Shown one piece after another: positions 1,996 to 40,946 of a stretch of DNA of 41,018 nt. How positions within the stretch are numbered: position 1 is the first letter of the stretch; every line of letters starts with the position of its first letter. The stretch lies in the IMG/VR virus record IMGVR_UViG_3300012676_000002, positions 1-41,018 of that record; one strand, written 5' to 3'. The DNA is from a virus (lineage: Duplodnaviria > Caudoviricetes). Made by a program: the position numbers and the translations under genes. The notes beneath the pieces are model-generated. The model worked only from the letters and a program-made list of their open reading frames with translations. It was not told the origin of the DNA and ran no database searches.

Positions 1996-2174
1996 TAGTT
2001 TTTAGCTTGTGAGAGTTTGCACGCCGTGAGAAACCGTTCCCTATCAAATCCCGGATTGTGCGATTGACAGAATGTTGCAAGGTCATTCGCAATAATGTCC
2101 ACGCTTAACGGCGCGTCCTGCGAACCCCACCAACGGACCAAAGTAGCTAGCGCTTGAAAGTGTTTAAGAGTCAT
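1995..2174 (-). CDS. Small phage protein (59 aa, MTLKHFQALA...NPGFDRERFLTAC)
   Basis: Hand-translated (below the ORF-track cutoff); GGGGAGG RBS; the NPxFDRxRF motif recurs in small phage early proteins. Confidence 0.8.
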   Translation of the reverse strand: MTLKHFQALATLVRWWGSQDAPLSVDIIANDLATFCQSHNPGFDRERFLTACKLSQAKN

Positions 2175-2177
2175 AGT

Positions 2178-2336
2178 TTAATCCTCCCCGTCGAAGACCT
2201 GAAGGTCGGTCTTCTGACCTTCGGTGTGAATGGCAACAGAGTTAAGGGGCGTGGCAGAAGAAAACACTGCCCCAACACAATAGTTGACCCCGTACACACA
2301 CCCTATTACTACTGCAAGCCATATCAACGCCTTCAT
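2178..2336 (-). CDS. Small protein with hydrophobic N-terminus (52 aa); contains repeat copy 1 in frame
   Basis: GGGAGGGA RBS, ATG 2336, directly after the promoter at 2375-2403. Confidence 0.55.
   Translation of the reverse strand: MKALIWLAVVIGCVYGVNYCVGAVFSSATPLNSVAIHTEGQKTDLQVFDGED
2192..2224 (+). repeat. 33-bp interleaved-palindrome element, copy 1
   Basis: CGAAGACCTGAAGGTCGGTCTTCTGACCTTCGG. Confidence 0.95.
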
Positions 2337-2374
2337 TGTCTGTCCCTCCCGTTTGTTTGTGTCTAACTATGCTC

Positions 2375-2403
2375 ATTCTAAACCCTAGACTGAGAAACGT
2401 CAA
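2375..2403 (-). promoter_or_regulatory. Sigma70-type promoter
   Basis: TTGACG-17bp-TAGAAT. Confidence 0.65.
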
Positions 2404-2417
2404 GGCTTATTCCGTGT

Positions 2418-2456
2418 CGAAGACCTGAAGTTATGGGCCTTCTGACCATACTTCGG
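2418..2456 (+). repeat. Interleaved-palindrome element, copy 2 (39 bp, expanded stem)
   Basis: CGAAGACCTGAAGTTATGGGCCTTCTGACCATACTTCGG. Confidence 0.9.
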
Positions 2457-2469
2457 TGCTAGTTTCGTG

Positions 2470-3110
2470 TTAATTTGGAGCACAACACACTACATTTATG
2501 TACTACACGGGGAATACAGAATTGTATTGTGTGTGTAGTAAATTACATACACTATATATTGTGGTGTCGGATTTCTTTACAGTTTGTAGTGTGTTTTGTG
2601 TAAAGAAACCTGACACCTTGAGTCGGTGGGGCTCAAGTATTGTCTCGTTTCTTCGGCACACACACACACACACACTCACTCCAACACACACAAACATATA
2701 CTCATAACATTGTGTTGTAGCATGTATGTGTAGCATGTTACAAGCGAAGCTCCGAAGGAAGAGCTTCTAGCCTTCGGCATAGCATGTTGTAGTGTGTTTG
2801 CTACAACACACACAACACAACACAATGCCGGATGTATATGTCTGTGTATTTGTTTGTGTTTTGTACTTGTGTAGGGGGGGATGTGCGTGGAAGGGTAGTC
2901 TCTTTTTTGTATTAACAGGAGGTACGCACTCACTAGACCCAAAAAACCTTGATTCCTGGCCCGGAACCCCCTTCGGGCGGGCCTATTAGTGTAATACAAT
3001 ACACACACAACACACACACAACATGGTGATATAGTCAGAAAGCCCTTAAAAGCCTCTAGGAGAAGACTTGAGGTTGTAGTGTGTGTGTTTGTGTTGTAGG
3101 GGAAGAGAAA
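2470..3110. repeat. CA/TG-rich low-complexity non-coding region with (CA)9 tract, TGTAG/CTACA repeats and hairpins
   Basis: (CA)9C at 2657-2675; about 11 TGTAG/CTACA motifs; inverted repeats at 2501-2540, 2563-2617 and 2711-2810. Confidence 0.85.
2745..2777 (+). repeat. Interleaved-palindrome element, divergent copy with compensatory changes
   Basis: CGAAGCTCCGAAGGAAGAGCTTCTAGCCTTCGG aligns without gaps to copy 1. Confidence 0.8.
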
Positions 3111-3204
3111 GGTTCCTAGGAGCTACCAGGGGTTTTTAGGGGATATGACACGGCTATGTCCGAAGGACAGGCCGGGGAAGGCTAGCAGCTTTAAGGGGGT
3201 TCCA

Positions 3205-3237
3205 CCGAAGGTCAGAAGACCGACCTTCAGGTCTTCG
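3205..3237 (-). repeat. Interleaved-palindrome element, inverted copy identical to copy 1
   Basis: Exact reverse complement of 2192-2224. Confidence 0.95.
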
Positions 3238-3304
3238 CCACAGGAGGCTCCCTAGAGACTGTGGTGGGTGAGTACATTTAGTCCCCCTCCGGGGGCCTAA
3301 AGAT

Positions 3305-3333
3305 ATTATAGCATACTTTTTAGGATTTGTCAA
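3305..3333 (-). promoter_or_regulatory. Major leftward promoter (perfect consensus)
   Basis: TTGACA-17bp-TATAAT with extended -10 TG and an upstream T tract. Confidence 0.85.
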
Positions 3334-3423
3334 GAAAAAAATGACAGATAATCCAAAAAATCTTTAAGTGTGGTAAAAAAGACACACACAAACAAAAAAA
3401 GTTCAGATCCGTGCATTTTTTAC

Positions 3424-3452
3424 TTGACTTTTGTTCAAAAGTGTGATATACT
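3424..3452 (+). promoter_or_regulatory. Rightward promoter for the morphogenesis arm
   Basis: TTGACT-17bp-TATACT with extended -10 TG. Confidence 0.8.
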
Positions 3453-26951: not shown

Positions 26952-27449
26952 TTAATTTTTCCTTCGATCAGAGAGCCCAAACCGACTACCAACAGGACAA
27001 CCTCGTGCTTTAGCGCCGGGCGCGGCGTGCCAGCTCATCCGGCGCGTCTTGACTCCGCTACGGCGGTTGTCAGCGTTGTTAGTCTCCGATAGCTGTGCGA
27101 GCATGGTGGGTGTTGGACCAGCTTTTGGTCGATTGTCCACCACAAACCCACCAAAAATCGCATCAGCGAGAATCGAAGCCCCCGCGATGATATGGCCCAA
27201 GTGGTGAACATTCGAGTCGGTAGCGTTATCTTCTCCATCTCGAAGAGCAAGTATGTGCCGTTCCATAGCATCTAAATAGATGGTGTACTGAATCTTTTGT
27301 TCTCGCCAGTTATACGGTTGATACTTCTTTGCTCCATCAGCCATAGCGAGTGAACCAAGAATGATACCTGCTCCGGGGAGCAGTCCAACAGGTATTTTCT
27401 TTGTACCAATCACATCTTTTGGATTCAAACCTTCTGATTGTTCACTCAT
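26952..27449 (-). CDS. dATP/dGTP diphosphohydrolase domain protein (DUF5664)
   Basis: NPKD.IG.KK.P..LLP, GAKKY..YNWR, YLDAMERH and DS..HHLGH motifs. Confidence 0.85.
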   Translation of the reverse strand: MSEQSEGLNPKDVIGTKKIPVGLLPGAGIILGSLAMADGAKKYQPYNWREQKIQYTIYLDAMERHILALRDGEDNATDSNVHHLGHIIAGASILADAIFGGFVVDNRPKAGPTPTMLAQLSETNNADNRRSGVKTRRMSWHAAPGAKARGCPVGSRFGLSDRRKN

Positions 27450-27717
27450 GACTAGCTCCTGTGTGACGCTTCTTTCGTGCCTCGACAATACTATTATAGT
27501 CCACCTGGAAATTCACCACCTTCGCTACATCTTGACTCGTCCACCCAATTTGATAGAGCAAATTGAACGCTGTCGTGAACAAATCAATCATGGGACGATC
27601 GAGGGTGATTGCAATGTTCCCTGAATCCTCACCATTTTCTGAGACGATCAATTCAAACTGTGCTCGGTCTTCGTTGGCAAACACTTTGATCTCAAGATCC
27701 CGTTTCGGTTCATCCAT
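27442..27717 (-). CDS. Hypothetical protein
   Basis: ORF in operon. Confidence 0.6.
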   Translation of the reverse strand: MDEPKRDLEIKVFANEDRAQFELIVSENGEDSGNIAITLDRPMIDLFTTAFNLLYQIGWTSQDVAKVVNFQVDYNSIVEARKKRHTGASHE

Positions 27718-27719
27718 CT

Positions 27720-28121
27720 TTACACCCAAAAGCTATTGATATAAGTACAAGCGTCTTCAATTTTAAAAAAAACTTTCACACAATAATTCTGTATCCAGGG
27801 ATGATTTCTGACCCGATGATCACTAGACACTAACACAATTGGACGGCTATTTGCATGGGCGTATTCGCATTCCATCCATGTGCCAATTGAAAGATGTTCA
27901 CCTACAGGATTTCCCCACACCAGCATTAAATCTGCTTTTTGGATGTCTAATTTATCTCGTGTCACAATCTCTTCTGTGGTAAATACTGCTGGATCATAGA
28001 GAGCCCTTCCCCGACATGGATCAATCGTGCGAGTATGTAACAAAGTTCTCGCTTGATCACGCCATTCGTCTGTGGCTTCTTTGTTGTCTTTGTATATTCC
28101 TCCGCTCAAGTAGACTACCAT
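27720..28121 (-). CDS. Nucleoside 2-deoxyribosyltransferase-like protein
   Basis: VYLSGGI, RDKLDI..AD, SIGTWME..YA and HPW motifs; GGAGG RBS. Confidence 0.85.
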   Translation of the reverse strand: MVVYLSGGIYKDNKEATDEWRDQARTLLHTRTIDPCRGRALYDPAVFTTEEIVTRDKLDIQKADLMLVWGNPVGEHLSIGTWMECEYAHANSRPIVLVSSDHRVRNHPWIQNYCVKVFFKIEDACTYINSFWV

Positions 28122-28288
28122 CACTTTCCTCCCATCCCGGCCCACAACAGGACAACATTTGTCAGTCCGTAAAGAAACCACAGGGCTGCCTTCTTAGGCT
28201 CCCCCACACACACCAACACAATTGATACCCCCCAATACAGCACAACCGTCAACAGCAGGACGTTTCTAATGATTGTGTATGTGTTCAT
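28121..28288 (-). CDS. Small two-TM protein (55 aa)
   Basis: Hand-translated MNTYTIIRNVLLLTVVLYWG...LWFLYGLTNVVLLW; coupled at both ends. Confidence 0.55.
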   Translation of the reverse strand: MNTYTIIRNVLLLTVVLYWGVSIVLVCVGEPKKAALWFLYGLTNVVLLWAGMGGK

Positions 28289-32570: not shown

Positions 32571-34215
32571 ATAGATTAGGCCCAGACTTCATATCCGCCT
32601 TGAACGGATACACCAAATTCTTCCCAAAATACTCTTTGAAATATTCTGCAATGCGACTGTATTCTTGTTTTAAGAGTGTCTTGACCTCCCTTCCCTCTTC
32701 AGGAGGGGCGTCAAACGTGATATCATCATGTGCGTCTAGCATCGGCCTGGTTCTAAATCCTGCACTCTCTAGGGCTCTCCACGTCTTGATCATCATGATT
32801 TTGTTGAACACTGTTCCCATGTGTTGGATTTTGTCGTTGTACGCCTCGGTGAAGGACGAGGTAAATCGCCGTTTCCCGGTATATGGACACACAACCACTC
32901 CGTTTCGGATGATCTCTCGCTCGCACGAATCAAAGTATCCACCCATTTCGGGGTACCGTATATCGAGTAGATCATGACGAATCTCAACGGCTTGTTTAGG
33001 TGACAGTCCGTACTCGTGTGTGAGTGTGTACCCCTTTCCCCCAAAAAAGACACTGAAGTTCACGTTTTTGGCTCGGGTCCTGTTCGGGATCACAGGAAAT
33101 CGCTTTAATGTCTCGCTGTGAAGGTCTTTTCCTGTCAGAAGATCATCGAGCAGGAATCTCTTGCCTGTAACATAGAACGCCATTTCAGCATTCAGAGCAA
33201 TTTCCAATTGCATCCAGTCGCAGGAAATCAGTTCCCCTCCCGGATACTTCGAGACAATGCACTTTTTGAACTCCGATGTGCCTCCCCGTGGCATAATCTG
33301 AATAAACTTCTCAGACATACGCCCTGTTGCAGGAGCTTTACTTTCCCCATCTGAAGAACCAGCCAGCTTATAATCTGGATAATAGACTCCATCTATCAAA
33401 ACTGCCAAAAATCCGGCACCATATGTTTGGCTTTGCTTCGCAGCGGAGCGGTAATCCAACAACACTTTGGCGCTAGGATGCTCTATTTTTAATAGGGCCT
33501 TCTTATCAACCTGGCCTCTTTCCGTGCCTGTACGGGCAAGCTGGATGCCTTGTTGGGTATAAAACTCGCCAACCTGGAGGTTACTTTGCCAGTCTATCTC
33601 AGCAAAAGCCAGTAATTCCTTCTTTTTAGCCTCTAGGATCTCATCGTGACCATTCAAAAAGGCAGCGTGGGCCTCCAGGTCCACCTTCATACCCTCCCGT
33701 TCCATCTCAGTCATGACTCCGATGAAGTCAGACATTAGATTTTGAAGAGGAAGTAGCCCCAACTTCACAATCCACGGTTGGACTCGATCTGCGATCCACT
33801 CCGTGGAACAGAGGTCGTGGCGATTGTACCACTTTAACGTATCAAGGTCTTCCCAATACTCTTCATCGAAGTTTACTAAATACTTCCAGTTGGGAAATGG
33901 GTAGCCCCACATCCTTGCCAAATCGACCAAGTGGTAGCTTGGCAAATCTGATCTGATTAAGTGGCAATCAACTTCAACGTCTCGGAATCGGGTCTTGGGA
34001 CCAAAGCGGTAGCCAGCTTGTCTACACGCCTTCGTGTCATATTTGGTGTTGGCCCCTACCACCACACAATCATCAATAACCCGCGAGTGATTGTCTTGTG
34101 TAACGTTAGGACCCGACTTCCACCCCACAAACAGCACTTGGAAGTCCGGGTGTCTCGCTTGCAACTGAAACGGCTGTGTTCCCTTCGTCTCGCAGTCCAA
34201 GATTATCTGTCTCAC
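32548..34215 (-). CDS. polA: Family A DNA polymerase with 3'-5' exonuclease
   Basis: Exo motifs DCET, N.KYD and YNRHD; TGRMS; motif A DWMQLE, motif B R..AK..NF and motif C HDD; start GTG 34215 or TTG 34233. Confidence 0.92.
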   Translation of the reverse strand: MRQIILDCETKGTQPFQLQARHPDFQVLFVGWKSGPNVTQDNHSRVIDDCVVVGANTKYDTKACRQAGYRFGPKTRFRDVEVDCHLIRSDLPSYHLVDLARMWGYPFPNWKYLVNFDEEYWEDLDTLKWYNRHDLCSTEWIADRVQPWIVKLGLLPLQNLMSDFIGVMTEMEREGMKVDLEAHAAFLNGHDEILEAKKKELLAFAEIDWQSNLQVGEFYTQQGIQLARTGTERGQVDKKALLKIEHPSAKVLLDYRSAAKQSQTYGAGFLAVLIDGVYYPDYKLAGSSDGESKAPATGRMSEKFIQIMPRGGTSEFKKCIVSKYPGGELISCDWMQLEIALNAEMAFYVTGKRFLLDDLLTGKDLHSETLKRFPVIPNRTRAKNVNFSVFFGGKGYTLTHEYGLSPKQAVEIRHDLLDIRYPEMGGYFDSCEREIIRNGVVVCPYTGKRRFTSSFTEAYNDKIQHMGTVFNKIMMIKTWRALESAGFRTRPMLDAHDDITFDAPPEEGREVKTLLKQEYSRIAEYFKEYFGKNLVYPFKADMKSGPNLFEQKKVE

Positions 34216-35107
34216 TCTTCGGCCCCAATCCAATTTCTTGTTTGTAACGTTGGAAGATCTTATAGCTCAGCAACTTCTTCGCATTGGGCCAGTACTTCTG
34301 GTAAAGAAATTCTTTGATTGTATCCAGCGACTCAGAGGCAACATCATTCTGTACAACCTTAATCAGGTTCCCGATATCTGTGACTGTTCCTGTGTATGTT
34401 TCATTCTCTTTCAAACGCTGTACACCCTTGCGGAATCGGGCTTCAGGAAACACAATCTGACACAGTGCCTCTTCCAAGGAATCCCCAATAGCATACGTCT
34501 TCTTAAAATCTTCTTTGAAATCCGCATTCACGATCTTGACAAAGAGCGGTTGACCGTAGGAACTGAGGCGGTCATAGTTCTTAATCACCACACCTTCAAC
34601 AGGACCACCCAACATTGATCCGGCTGTATTCAACGCTGTCAAGTGGTCATTCACATCCACGAGGGTCTCAAAATATGTACAAGAGACACTCTGAATAAAT
34701 GATAGGTTGCGGTCTTCCAAAATAGAATTTCTCACGGTAGGAACTATAAATACATACTCTCCGTCTTGACGTTTATAGGAAAAATCAAATAACACAAACG
34801 GTTCTTTACGACCATAAACCAACACATTGTGGTTGTTACAGAACTCTCCCCACAACGTTTCTCCGGGTTGGAGCCCCCACAGTAAGGCTTGTTTGTGTTC
34901 CTCGAACCACAGAAGGAAGAATCCAAACTGCTTTGAATTCTGGTCCAACCATCGCATCCGAGAAGCCAAGCGAAGCCCGTCTTCTGTTCGGTGAATCGAC
35001 ACGTTGCTGCCGTCCAGTTTTTCAGACACGAAGACACCTGAGTCTTTTAGGTCTTCAGTCCCTTTGTAACCTAACGCATGAATCTTTGGATAGGGAATAA
35101 ATTCCAT
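34106..35107 (-). CDS. ATP-dependent RNA ligase (Rnl2-like)
   Basis: YPKI, EKLDGSN, WGEF, FVLFD, EGVVIK and VKIV nucleotidyltransferase motifs; AGGAG RBS. Confidence 0.85.
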   Translation of the reverse strand: MEFIPYPKIHALGYKGTEDLKDSGVFVSEKLDGSNVSIHRTEDGLRLASRMRWLDQNSKQFGFFLLWFEEHKQALLWGLQPGETLWGEFCNNHNVLVYGRKEPFVLFDFSYKRQDGEYVFIVPTVRNSILEDRNLSFIQSVSCTYFETLVDVNDHLTALNTAGSMLGGPVEGVVIKNYDRLSSYGQPLFVKIVNADFKEDFKKTYAIGDSLEEALCQIVFPEARFRKGVQRLKENETYTGTVTDIGNLIKVVQNDVASESLDTIKEFLYQKYWPNAKKLLSYKIFQRYKQEIGLGPKSETDNLGLRDEGNTAVSVASETPGLPSAVCGVEVGS

Positions 35108-40381: not shown

Positions 40382-40574
40382 GATCTATCGGACCTCCTCT
40401 ACAGTCTTCACAGTTTTTTAGATAGTTGTTATATGCGGAGATGCGTGGTCTATCGTAGTAGGTCCAATCTTCCCCGACATAAATAGGACCATGACAACTA
40501 AAACACTTCCCTAAGTATTCCCCTCCGACTTGTGGCCTACTATCCGCAAACGAATCACTTGTGGATTCTAGCAT
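40371..40574 (-). CDS. Small zinc-finger protein
   Basis: CFSC..PIYVGE...CEDC; GGAGG RBS before ATG 40574. Confidence 0.65.
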   Translation of the reverse strand: MLESTSDSFADSRPQVGGEYLGKCFSCHGPIYVGEDWTYYDRPRISAYNNYLKNCEDCRGGPIDHEN

Positions 40575-40623
40575 GGTCCCCTCCAATTTGATTGACACCG
40601 TAAGCAAACATCATCCCACACTA

Positions 40624-40785
40624 TCAACCTACCGCACAAGCAAGTATGAGGCTGTGGCTTTCGTCGAAGACCTGAAGGTCGATCTTCTGACCTTCGGTTA
40701 GGACTTTGTAACGGTCTTGGAACCGTCCATTGTTCCCGCGAGTCACACTTAGATCATCCTCTATGAGTCGGTGTCTTATGTCCAT
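40624..40785 (-). CDS. Small hypothetical protein (53 aa); contains repeat copy in frame
   Basis: Hand-translated MDIRHRLIEDD...TEGQKIDLQVFD...; GGAG RBS. Confidence 0.45.
   Translation of the reverse strand: MDIRHRLIEDDLSVTRGNNGRFQDRYKVLTEGQKIDLQVFDESHSLILACAVG
40665..40697 (+). repeat. Interleaved-palindrome element, copy with one substitution
   Basis: CGAAGACCTGAAGGTCGATCTTCTGACCTTCGG (32/33 identical to copy 1). Confidence 0.95.
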
Positions 40786-40946
40786 AGATCAAACTCCATT
40801 TCACACATTTTTTCTGCCACACGAAAGACTAGAGCACTTGAATTGACATCACGTTGAATGTCAAGTGCTGCCTTTGCTGCGCGTTCTGGTGACGTTGCGA
40901 CAATATCAATTTCCCATATGACGCGGTACAGTTTAGATTTTGGCAT
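40776..40946 (-). CDS. Conserved small phage protein (56 aa)
   Basis: Hand-translated YRVIWEIDIVATSPERAAKAALDIQRD..S.A.VF; AAGGAAGG RBS; start lies within the terminal repeat. Confidence 0.75.
   Translation of the reverse strand: MPKSKLYRVIWEIDIVATSPERAAKAALDIQRDVNSSALVFRVAEKMCEMEFDLWT

Follow-up and report, generated by a model that had tools for sequence, protein, structure and literature searches.

A 36-bp unit with two interleaved stems, carried in several copies by a phage genome (the window, the whole stretch of 41,018 nts analysed here), is interpreted with moderate confidence as a non-autonomous mobile micro-element, made of nested inverted double mini-hairpin cores and moved as folded ssDNA by a host enzyme. 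This interpretation draws on an insertion into a gene, fixed boundaries, the occurrence of both orientations, the lack of target duplication, a nested architecture and a core matching an insert found in the cyanobacterial HIP1 octamer. The unit is likely among the smallest mobile elements and is likely related to tiny cyanobacterial repeats.

The record is complete, its 123-base end overlap giving a genome of 40,895 bp. P22-like head and connector genes occupy the + strand from 3481, while the - strand encodes PolA-family polymerase, Prim-Pol/helicase, RNA-ligase-like, Cas4-like and endonuclease VII-like proteins. The capsid proteins reach 34% identity to their nearest counterparts in GenBank. 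Divergent sigma-70-type promoter-like sites at 3305-3333 (-, 12/12) and 3424-3452 (+, 10/12) separate the early and late arms, and further leftward promoter-like sites (2403, 1973, 903) precede small gene cassettes. Genes at 26952-28181 and 34106-35107 encode dATP/dGTP diphosphohydrolase-domain, nucleoside 2-deoxyribosyltransferase-like and RNA-ligase-like proteins, the first two of which could indicate nucleotide metabolism for modified bases or anti-defence. Three runs, all labelled freshwater sediment, contained at least half of the window's sampled words, and the best of these may be the source sample; no RNA datasets were listed among the runs holding window words.

A preliminary description had placed five copies of a 33-bp element in the window, the one at 3205 being inverted. 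The five locations and the inversion were confirmed, but the copies, compared with one another, define a unit of 36 bp (GTCGAAGACCTGAAGGTCGGTCTTCTGACCTTCGGT at 2190-2225; Table 1). The pattern of boxes matched the window four times and none of 100 shuffles, the longer 2418 copy requiring a wider spacing to match. A sixth copy, of 38 bp, lies on contig L015, from the closest relative (terminase 83% identical). Two of the five window copies are inside predicted genes, which had been missed previously. In the control region, the 2190 copy is directly upstream of the Shine-Dalgarno (SD)-like GGGGAGG of ORF 1995-2174, the 2416 copy is 12 nts upstream of the -35 box of a leftward promoter-like site (2403-2375), and the 3204 copy is about 65 nts downstream of a leftward promoter-like site with a 12/12 consensus (3333-3305). 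Both orientations are present relative to leftward promoters.

Table 1. Copies of the unit, genes that carry them and related features (positions refer to the window unless a contig is named)
Feature	Position	Strand	Remarks
Open reading frame of 52 codons	2178..2336	-	GGAGG SD; carries the 2190 copy
Reference 36-bp copy	2190..2225	+	Inside the 3′ end of the 52-codon ORF 2178-2336 (-)
42-bp copy	2416..2457	+	Both arms of stem X expanded; stem Y with a single A-C mismatch
Diverged 36-bp copy	2743..2778	+	12/36 changes
Inverted copy	3204..3239	-	Complementary to the 2190 copy at 35/35
36-bp in-frame copy	40663..40698	+	12 codons, TEGQKIDLQVFD on the - strand, in small Cys-rich gene
Gene carrying the 40663 insertion	40568..40785	-	72-aa CxC..CxxC protein
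TGTG..ATTTAT..CACA repeats	L211 3757-3812; L010 838-893; L057 282-318; L212 1111-1152; L015 48-123
HIP1-inserted double mini-hairpin elements	L215 301-332; L217-L221; L222 145-176		Acaryochloris, Calothrix and Nostoc plasmids and a provirus

The flanks of the six copies are unrelated, with neither target duplication nor target consensus. In the right flank, one G is common to four of the six and is the sole common motif, while microhomology at the junctions amounts to at most 1 base. The ends of the unit are not complementary to each other. Within the unit, the GAAG/CTTC boxes are nearly invariant in all six copies, as expected of a double-stranded operator in which four GAAG boxes would be bound by a phage or host protein. 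However, the symmetry is crossed rather than dyad, the box spacing is not constant (the 2416 copy departs by 2 and 4 bases, L015 by 2), and one copy lies in the middle of a gene; an operator is therefore regarded as very improbable.

The copy at 40663 provides the direct case for insertion. At 40656-40657, contigs of two runs and another assembly contain one base (G) that the window lacks, and the gene looks frameshifted as a result; the missing base is either an assembly error or a rare variant, and the intact 72-residue protein (P0009) is encoded in another assembly. A self-removing micro-intron, ribosomal bypass and frameshifting, which the RNA-ligase-like gene and the apparent frameshift had prompted, were dropped, since P0009 reads through the insert in frame. 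Seven contigs of the clade came from a scan that used a separate conserved site as its anchor; one of them, L211, encodes a 54-residue Cys-rich protein that matches the window to the left and right of the 40663 copy, with a different frame on each side. Aligned with the proteins of L211 and L212 and with P0003-P0006 (the long Cys-repeat proteins P0007 and P0008 being left out), P0009 carries a 12-residue insertion relative to all six homologues, in each of which the spacing between GxF and the first Cys is 14 residues. L211 and P0003 are 91% identical, and therefore about five of the six homologues are independent. The 12 extra codons correspond exactly to the 36-bp unit, a length found independently by the comparison of copies. 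By this alignment, the 40663 copy is an insertion. The empty site is demonstrated at one of the five window copies, which tempers the case for mobility. In ORF 2178-2336, the 2190 copy has the same orientation and codon phase as the copy in the Cys-rich gene. No homologue of this ORF was found, and neither element-bearing ORF as read from the window had a homologue by word search.

The 2190 copy varies among strains. Protein P0010, from another assembly, differs at two codons within the unit, with one change of the 40663 type and one other, and minor contigs of run X1 differ at the same copy (including 2194 A>G). Judging from these variants, gene conversion between copies is suggested. Contigs of 8 runs contained no joints or inversions, contig data being no evidence of absence. 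The window copies are clustered within 3.5 kb, with P=2.6e-4 genome-wide, or P=0.035 if about 12 kb is tolerant, a figure that we assumed. Such clustering could reflect tolerance within dispensable genes or hopping to nearby sites; it would also suit a local function, and to this extent it weighs against mobility.

The two interleaved stems, arranged as Y-X-Y′-X′, were largely as first described: stem Y changes from ACC/GGT to CTC/GAG in the 2743 copy (2745 in the preliminary description), A-C mismatches occur in stem Y at 2418 and 40665, and stem X is expanded on both sides at 2418. Stem Y is held in all six copies. Stem X retains 5 of 7 pairs in the 2743 copy, the two broken pairs being absent from the earlier account. 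As for covariation, compensatory changes do exist, but all two-sided pair changes stem from this single copy and the combined Y+X score was reached by 34 of 500 shuffles. The terminal 3-bp triloop mini-hairpins, previously overlooked, also covary (3 pairs, 7 of 500 shuffles), with the qualification that copies are not independent and that terminal stems partly follow from the symmetry of the unit. Each strand opens with a 3-bp C(GAA)G mini-hairpin at its 5′ end, and a 3-bp triloop stem, never longer, is found at 10 of the 12 unit ends. Counted over the four pairings, 18 of 20 pairs survive in the 2743 copy despite its 12 changes; P is 2.6e-4 when the changes fall on 12 random non-box sites, but only 0.046 when their sites are kept as they are. 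Stem Y and both terminal mini-hairpins are preserved in this copy by two-sided changes. The 2416 copy keeps both long stems and loses most mini-hairpins, which counts against recognition and movement of the unit. Control regions of the clade also contain solitary C(GAA)G triloop hairpins with stems of at most 5 bp (window 3157-3169 and 2968-2976; L014 5412-5424 and 5473-5485).

Selection on a single-stranded fold had been proposed previously, together with a bistable switch, antitermination or RNA processing. The importance of the fold is probably real, while the functional RNA part of the proposal finds no support. The same architecture exists on both strands and, as RNA, an extended 3′ hairpin is favoured on each (-17.3 versus -10.6 and -13.3 versus -10.8 kcal/mol). 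Its margin over the 5′ hairpin is 6.7 and 2.5 kcal/mol, so that equilibrium bistability is weak. The unit is an insertion missing from homologous genes and occurs in both orientations.

Another form of RNA control, beneficial to the phage, would have the 3204 copy, transcribed from the strong promoter-like site at 3333-3305, act as an antisense to the four others and pair with early mRNAs, leading to shut-off or RNase III cleavage, or would use the 5′ and 3′ hairpins as a switch. The predicted duplexes of the 3204 copy with the others are stable (-71.0, -68.4, -51.4 and -44.7 kcal/mol), although any inverted repeat copies produce such duplexes. A terminator-like site at 2968-2951 (z=-3.1) could end a leader RNA of about 360 nts and one copy abuts an SD, but no U-tract follows any copy on the leftward strand. 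The A-C mismatches had been read as G-U wobbles on the leftward strand; this is true of the single mismatches at 2416, 40663 and L015 (3/3), but a fourth variant (2194 A>G; P0010) wobbles on the other strand, reducing the count to 3/4. Furthermore, the element is missing in relatives with the same control region, and an in-frame insertion in the middle of a gene fits tolerance rather than need. RNA control of this kind is thus considered unlikely.

The linkers had also been judged too short for a pseudoknot, which is correct for a 7+7 fold, not feasible here, but not for a 4+7 fold resembling CPK-1, which is geometrically possible. The geometry predicted from the sequence (4-bp S1, 1-nt loop, 7-bp S2, no inter-stem loop, 4-nt loop) fits the CPK-1 definition (S2 of 6-7 bp, L1 of 1-2 nts, no L3; PMC3835772). 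Such an H-type pseudoknot, on either strand, could protect or regulate RNA. Nevertheless, the 2-base insertion of L015 pairs with both linker bases, leaving zero-length loops, and the inner X pairs are broken in the 2743 copy; this model is considered very unlikely. A ToxI mimic, boxB and a hammerhead were dropped for want of tandem arrays or core motifs.

The identical architecture of both strands also suits a structural ssDNA signal near an origin or packaging start, in which nuclease-resistant mini-hairpins or a resolvase or primase landmark would have reached new sites through recombination or templated insertion, with no transposase involved. The 3.5-kb arc that holds all copies surrounds a non-coding element conserved in the clade (2873-2925), relatives carry simple hairpins where the 2743 and L015 copies sit, and the phage encodes endonuclease VII-like, Cas4-like and Prim-Pol proteins. 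However, template switching alone would hardly give identical ends at sites that are unrelated and show no more than 1 base of junction microhomology, and relatives do without the unit. We therefore hold a structural signal to be improbable.

The 2873-2925 element itself is present in 7 viral contigs besides the window and consists of a G run, TGTGYGTG, a pyrimidine tract and AGGAGGTAY, with no start codon after the last motif and a weak consensus fold. In 4 runs, contig depth is higher right of about 2690 than just left of it, but a repeat cuts contigs there. The element is possibly a packaging start or genome end. Left of the equivalent site, relatives carry 18-bp TGTG..ATTTAT..CACA repeats, mostly with a 19-bp spacing and degenerate in the window, which look iteron- or operator-like. 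At 40834-40869, the window contains two overlapping inverted repeats, one with TTGACA on both strands, which are operator- or slipped-hairpin-like.

The interleaved layout can be accounted for by the way in which the unit arose. In the L015 copy, the left 8 and right 8 nts taken together have a reverse complement that agrees with the middle 16 at 15 of 16 positions without gaps, and 108,043 bases of relatives held a single further signature of this kind. A 3-1-4-2 template switch creates two inverted repeats in one event (PMC5453318), and multi-base compensatory changes can arise through template switching (PMC8794818). We infer that the Y-X-Y′-X′ layout is the product of one inter-strand 3-1-4-2 template switch or of hairpin self-insertion. 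Because template switching yields both, selection for an RNA switch is not required to explain the layout or part of the covariation. Relatives carry a hairpin at position 2743 from which the copy there may have come, a point against its arrival as a mobile unit. In the relative G001, an unrelated single-copy interleaved inverted repeat lies beside a promoter-like site (L204 1298-1330).

A weak plasmid BLAST match (E=8) led to an insert of 24 nts that separates the third from the fourth base of HIP1 (GCGATCGC) in an Acaryochloris plasmid. The family comprises 8 plasmid records, all cyanobacterial, and the same insert is also found in a provirus. Among the six members read, five occupy an intact HIP1 and the sixth a degenerate site; two of the six lie entirely within annotated genes. 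The 22-base core of the insert forms two adjacent 4-bp triloop hairpins, mostly with GNA loops, and its variants keep the local mini-hairpins while crossed pairs are lost. The phage unit matches this core at 22/22 positions in forward orientation with two 1-base gaps, and at 20/20 in reverse around a 16-nt gap. Hence the element, which had not been recognized as a known motif, is indeed absent from Rfam, but its core matches a cyanobacterial HIP1-inserted repeat. Common descent of the two cores is rather likely. Convergence is the lesser possibility, though a real one, because a symmetric 22-mer is information-poor. The origin of the link in a match of E=8 and the lack of any HIP1 octamer or monomer core in the phage and its relatives both weaken the case for mobility. 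By placement, not by sequence comparison, the plasmid insert is of SDR5 type, since placement within HIP1 defines SDR5 (PMC4390886, PMC5861425). SDR5 is reported solely in Nostocaceae (PMC5861425), and therefore the Acaryochloris inserts may extend its range.

Further copies of the full unit were rare. In IMG/VR, a strict pattern scan gave 2 matches, neither interleaved, and a relaxed scan gave 32, among which the contig of L015 alone was real. Among 55 metagenome matches, 3 were the window's own record and 1 was the contig of L015; the remaining 51 lacked both stems together and homology to window proteins. GTDB yielded 20 single matches, none with both stems or the full unit and none arrayed as a CRISPR repeat of a host would be (the host is possibly unrepresented there), and GenBank phages gave 73 weak matches, none covering 80%. 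A covariance model (R1) had been suggested as a check on related contigs: built from the window copies, it matches all five by construction, and it found 1 match in 7 clade loci, none in 81 terminase-linked loci (best E 0.27) and 1 across 5 whole records. No Rfam family matched the window at gathering score, and the 13 sub-threshold matches in 2100-3350 were mostly to eukaryotic miRNA and snoRNA models. Neither the relative G001 (40,000 of 40,143 bases) nor the record G006 contained a copy. A literature search on such elements in phages, with most subscription journals outside its coverage, returned nothing relevant.

In the favoured interpretation of a mobile micro-element, the unit would be built of two nested inverted copies of the double mini-hairpin core, the interleaved stems arising from one inter-strand template switch or self-insertion. 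Recognition would be of the folded ssDNA, through the mini-hairpins at its ends; the C(GNA)G mini-hairpins at the 5′ end of each strand would mark the cut points, and a host enzyme would paste the unit without duplication. An RNA route could also be envisaged. The exceptional stability of C(GNA)G triloops is a property of DNA, not of RNA. Copies would survive just in the dispensable early region, aided by a length divisible by three. Searches of the phage turned up neither a Y1 transposase nor a tyrosine integrase or reverse transcriptase; together with the absence of a full unit from the 20 GTDB matches, this speaks against mobility. Atlas searches of two unknown phage proteins named no mobiliser, and searches of the TerS and DUF932 loci found no relatives. 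A HUH transposase (IS200/IS605- or RAYT-like), supplied in trans, is the leading, if tentative, candidate. RAYT-type HUH enzymes cleave single-stranded REP hairpins (PMC3733652).

A more far-reaching and rather doubtful proposal is that double C(GNA)G mini-hairpins constitute a cross-lineage class of ssDNA micro-transposons of 22-36 bases, the smallest mobile DNA, served by one common host enzyme, and that nesting allowed the phage unit to escape the HIP1 target and to add 12-residue peptides. If true, one common host enzyme would act in cyanobacteria and in an unrelated phage. To our knowledge, no dedicated transposase is known for SDRs. The unit bears on how elements of less than 40 bases move, since its exact ends, empty site, natural variants and core common to a cyanobacterial family make it ready for cleavage and hop assays. 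The unit also calls for caution, since interleaved stems with apparent covariation may be the footprint of a template switch and mobility rather than an RNA switch.

Among known systems, the closest likeness is with the cyanobacterial small dispersed repeats of the SDR5 type, reportedly described by Elhai et al. in 2008. SDR5 repeats measure about 21-27 nts, and some SDRs nest within copies of themselves. Like them, the phage unit is tiny, non-coding, structured, located between and inside genes and divisible by three in length, and its core of two adjacent short stem-loops aligns in both orientations. In the broader SDR sense, presence and absence at orthologous sites is observed at the one testable site of five. 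In contrast to the 24-nt monomer, the phage unit is a nested dimer of 36 bp (also 38 and 42 bp), outside the SDR5 length. SDR5 placement is likewise lacking, as there is no HIP1 in the window and the six flanks are unrelated; the unit has neither HIP1 target nor AT duplication, and the phage neither integrase nor HIP1 octamers.

REP and REPIN elements share with the unit a size of 20-40 bp, palindromic structure, dispersal and occasional intragenic location (PMC3733652, PMC3116915). Two of the six copies begin with CGTC and one with TGTC, and CGTC REPs are also described as lacking a dedicated transposase (PMC3733652). However, a REP has one stem of 8-9 bp and a loop of 4-5 nts, whereas the unit has two interleaved 7-bp stems with 8-nt loops (PMC3733652, PMC3116915). 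The unit has no CCA tail and the phage no RAYT; moreover, the tag-like start is limited to three of six copies, and its first C is not part of the 36-bp insert at the one place where an empty allele is known. Elements of the REPIN/RAYT or IS200/IS605 type insert next to a fixed tetra- or pentanucleotide without duplication; the six flanks of the unit are free of duplication but, apart from the one G, have no common target motif.

In-frame insertion into protein-coding genes is shared with Rickettsia palindromic elements and MITEs, but the former are about 150 bp and the latter, of 50-500 bp, have terminal inverted repeats and target duplications, neither of which the 36-bp unit has (PMC10969869); its ends are not complementary and nothing is duplicated. 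The PeSL cassettes of T4-like phages are also repeated structured elements of a plastic early region (PMC2839356, PMC4122927), but the unit has no internal promoter, occurs in both orientations and is found once in mid-gene. Compared with the CPK-1 pseudoknot of the T2/T4 gene 32 mRNA, a partial fold is similar (S2 of 7 bp, L1 of 1 nt, no inter-stem loop; PMC3835772), but the geometry is lost in two of six copies (L015 and 2743) and only one of the five window copies abuts a ribosome-binding site. The phage unit is thus a real and new 36-bp micro-element outside the SDR5, REP and MITE families, which would work like an SDR or a REP and is likely of SDR5-type core ancestry.
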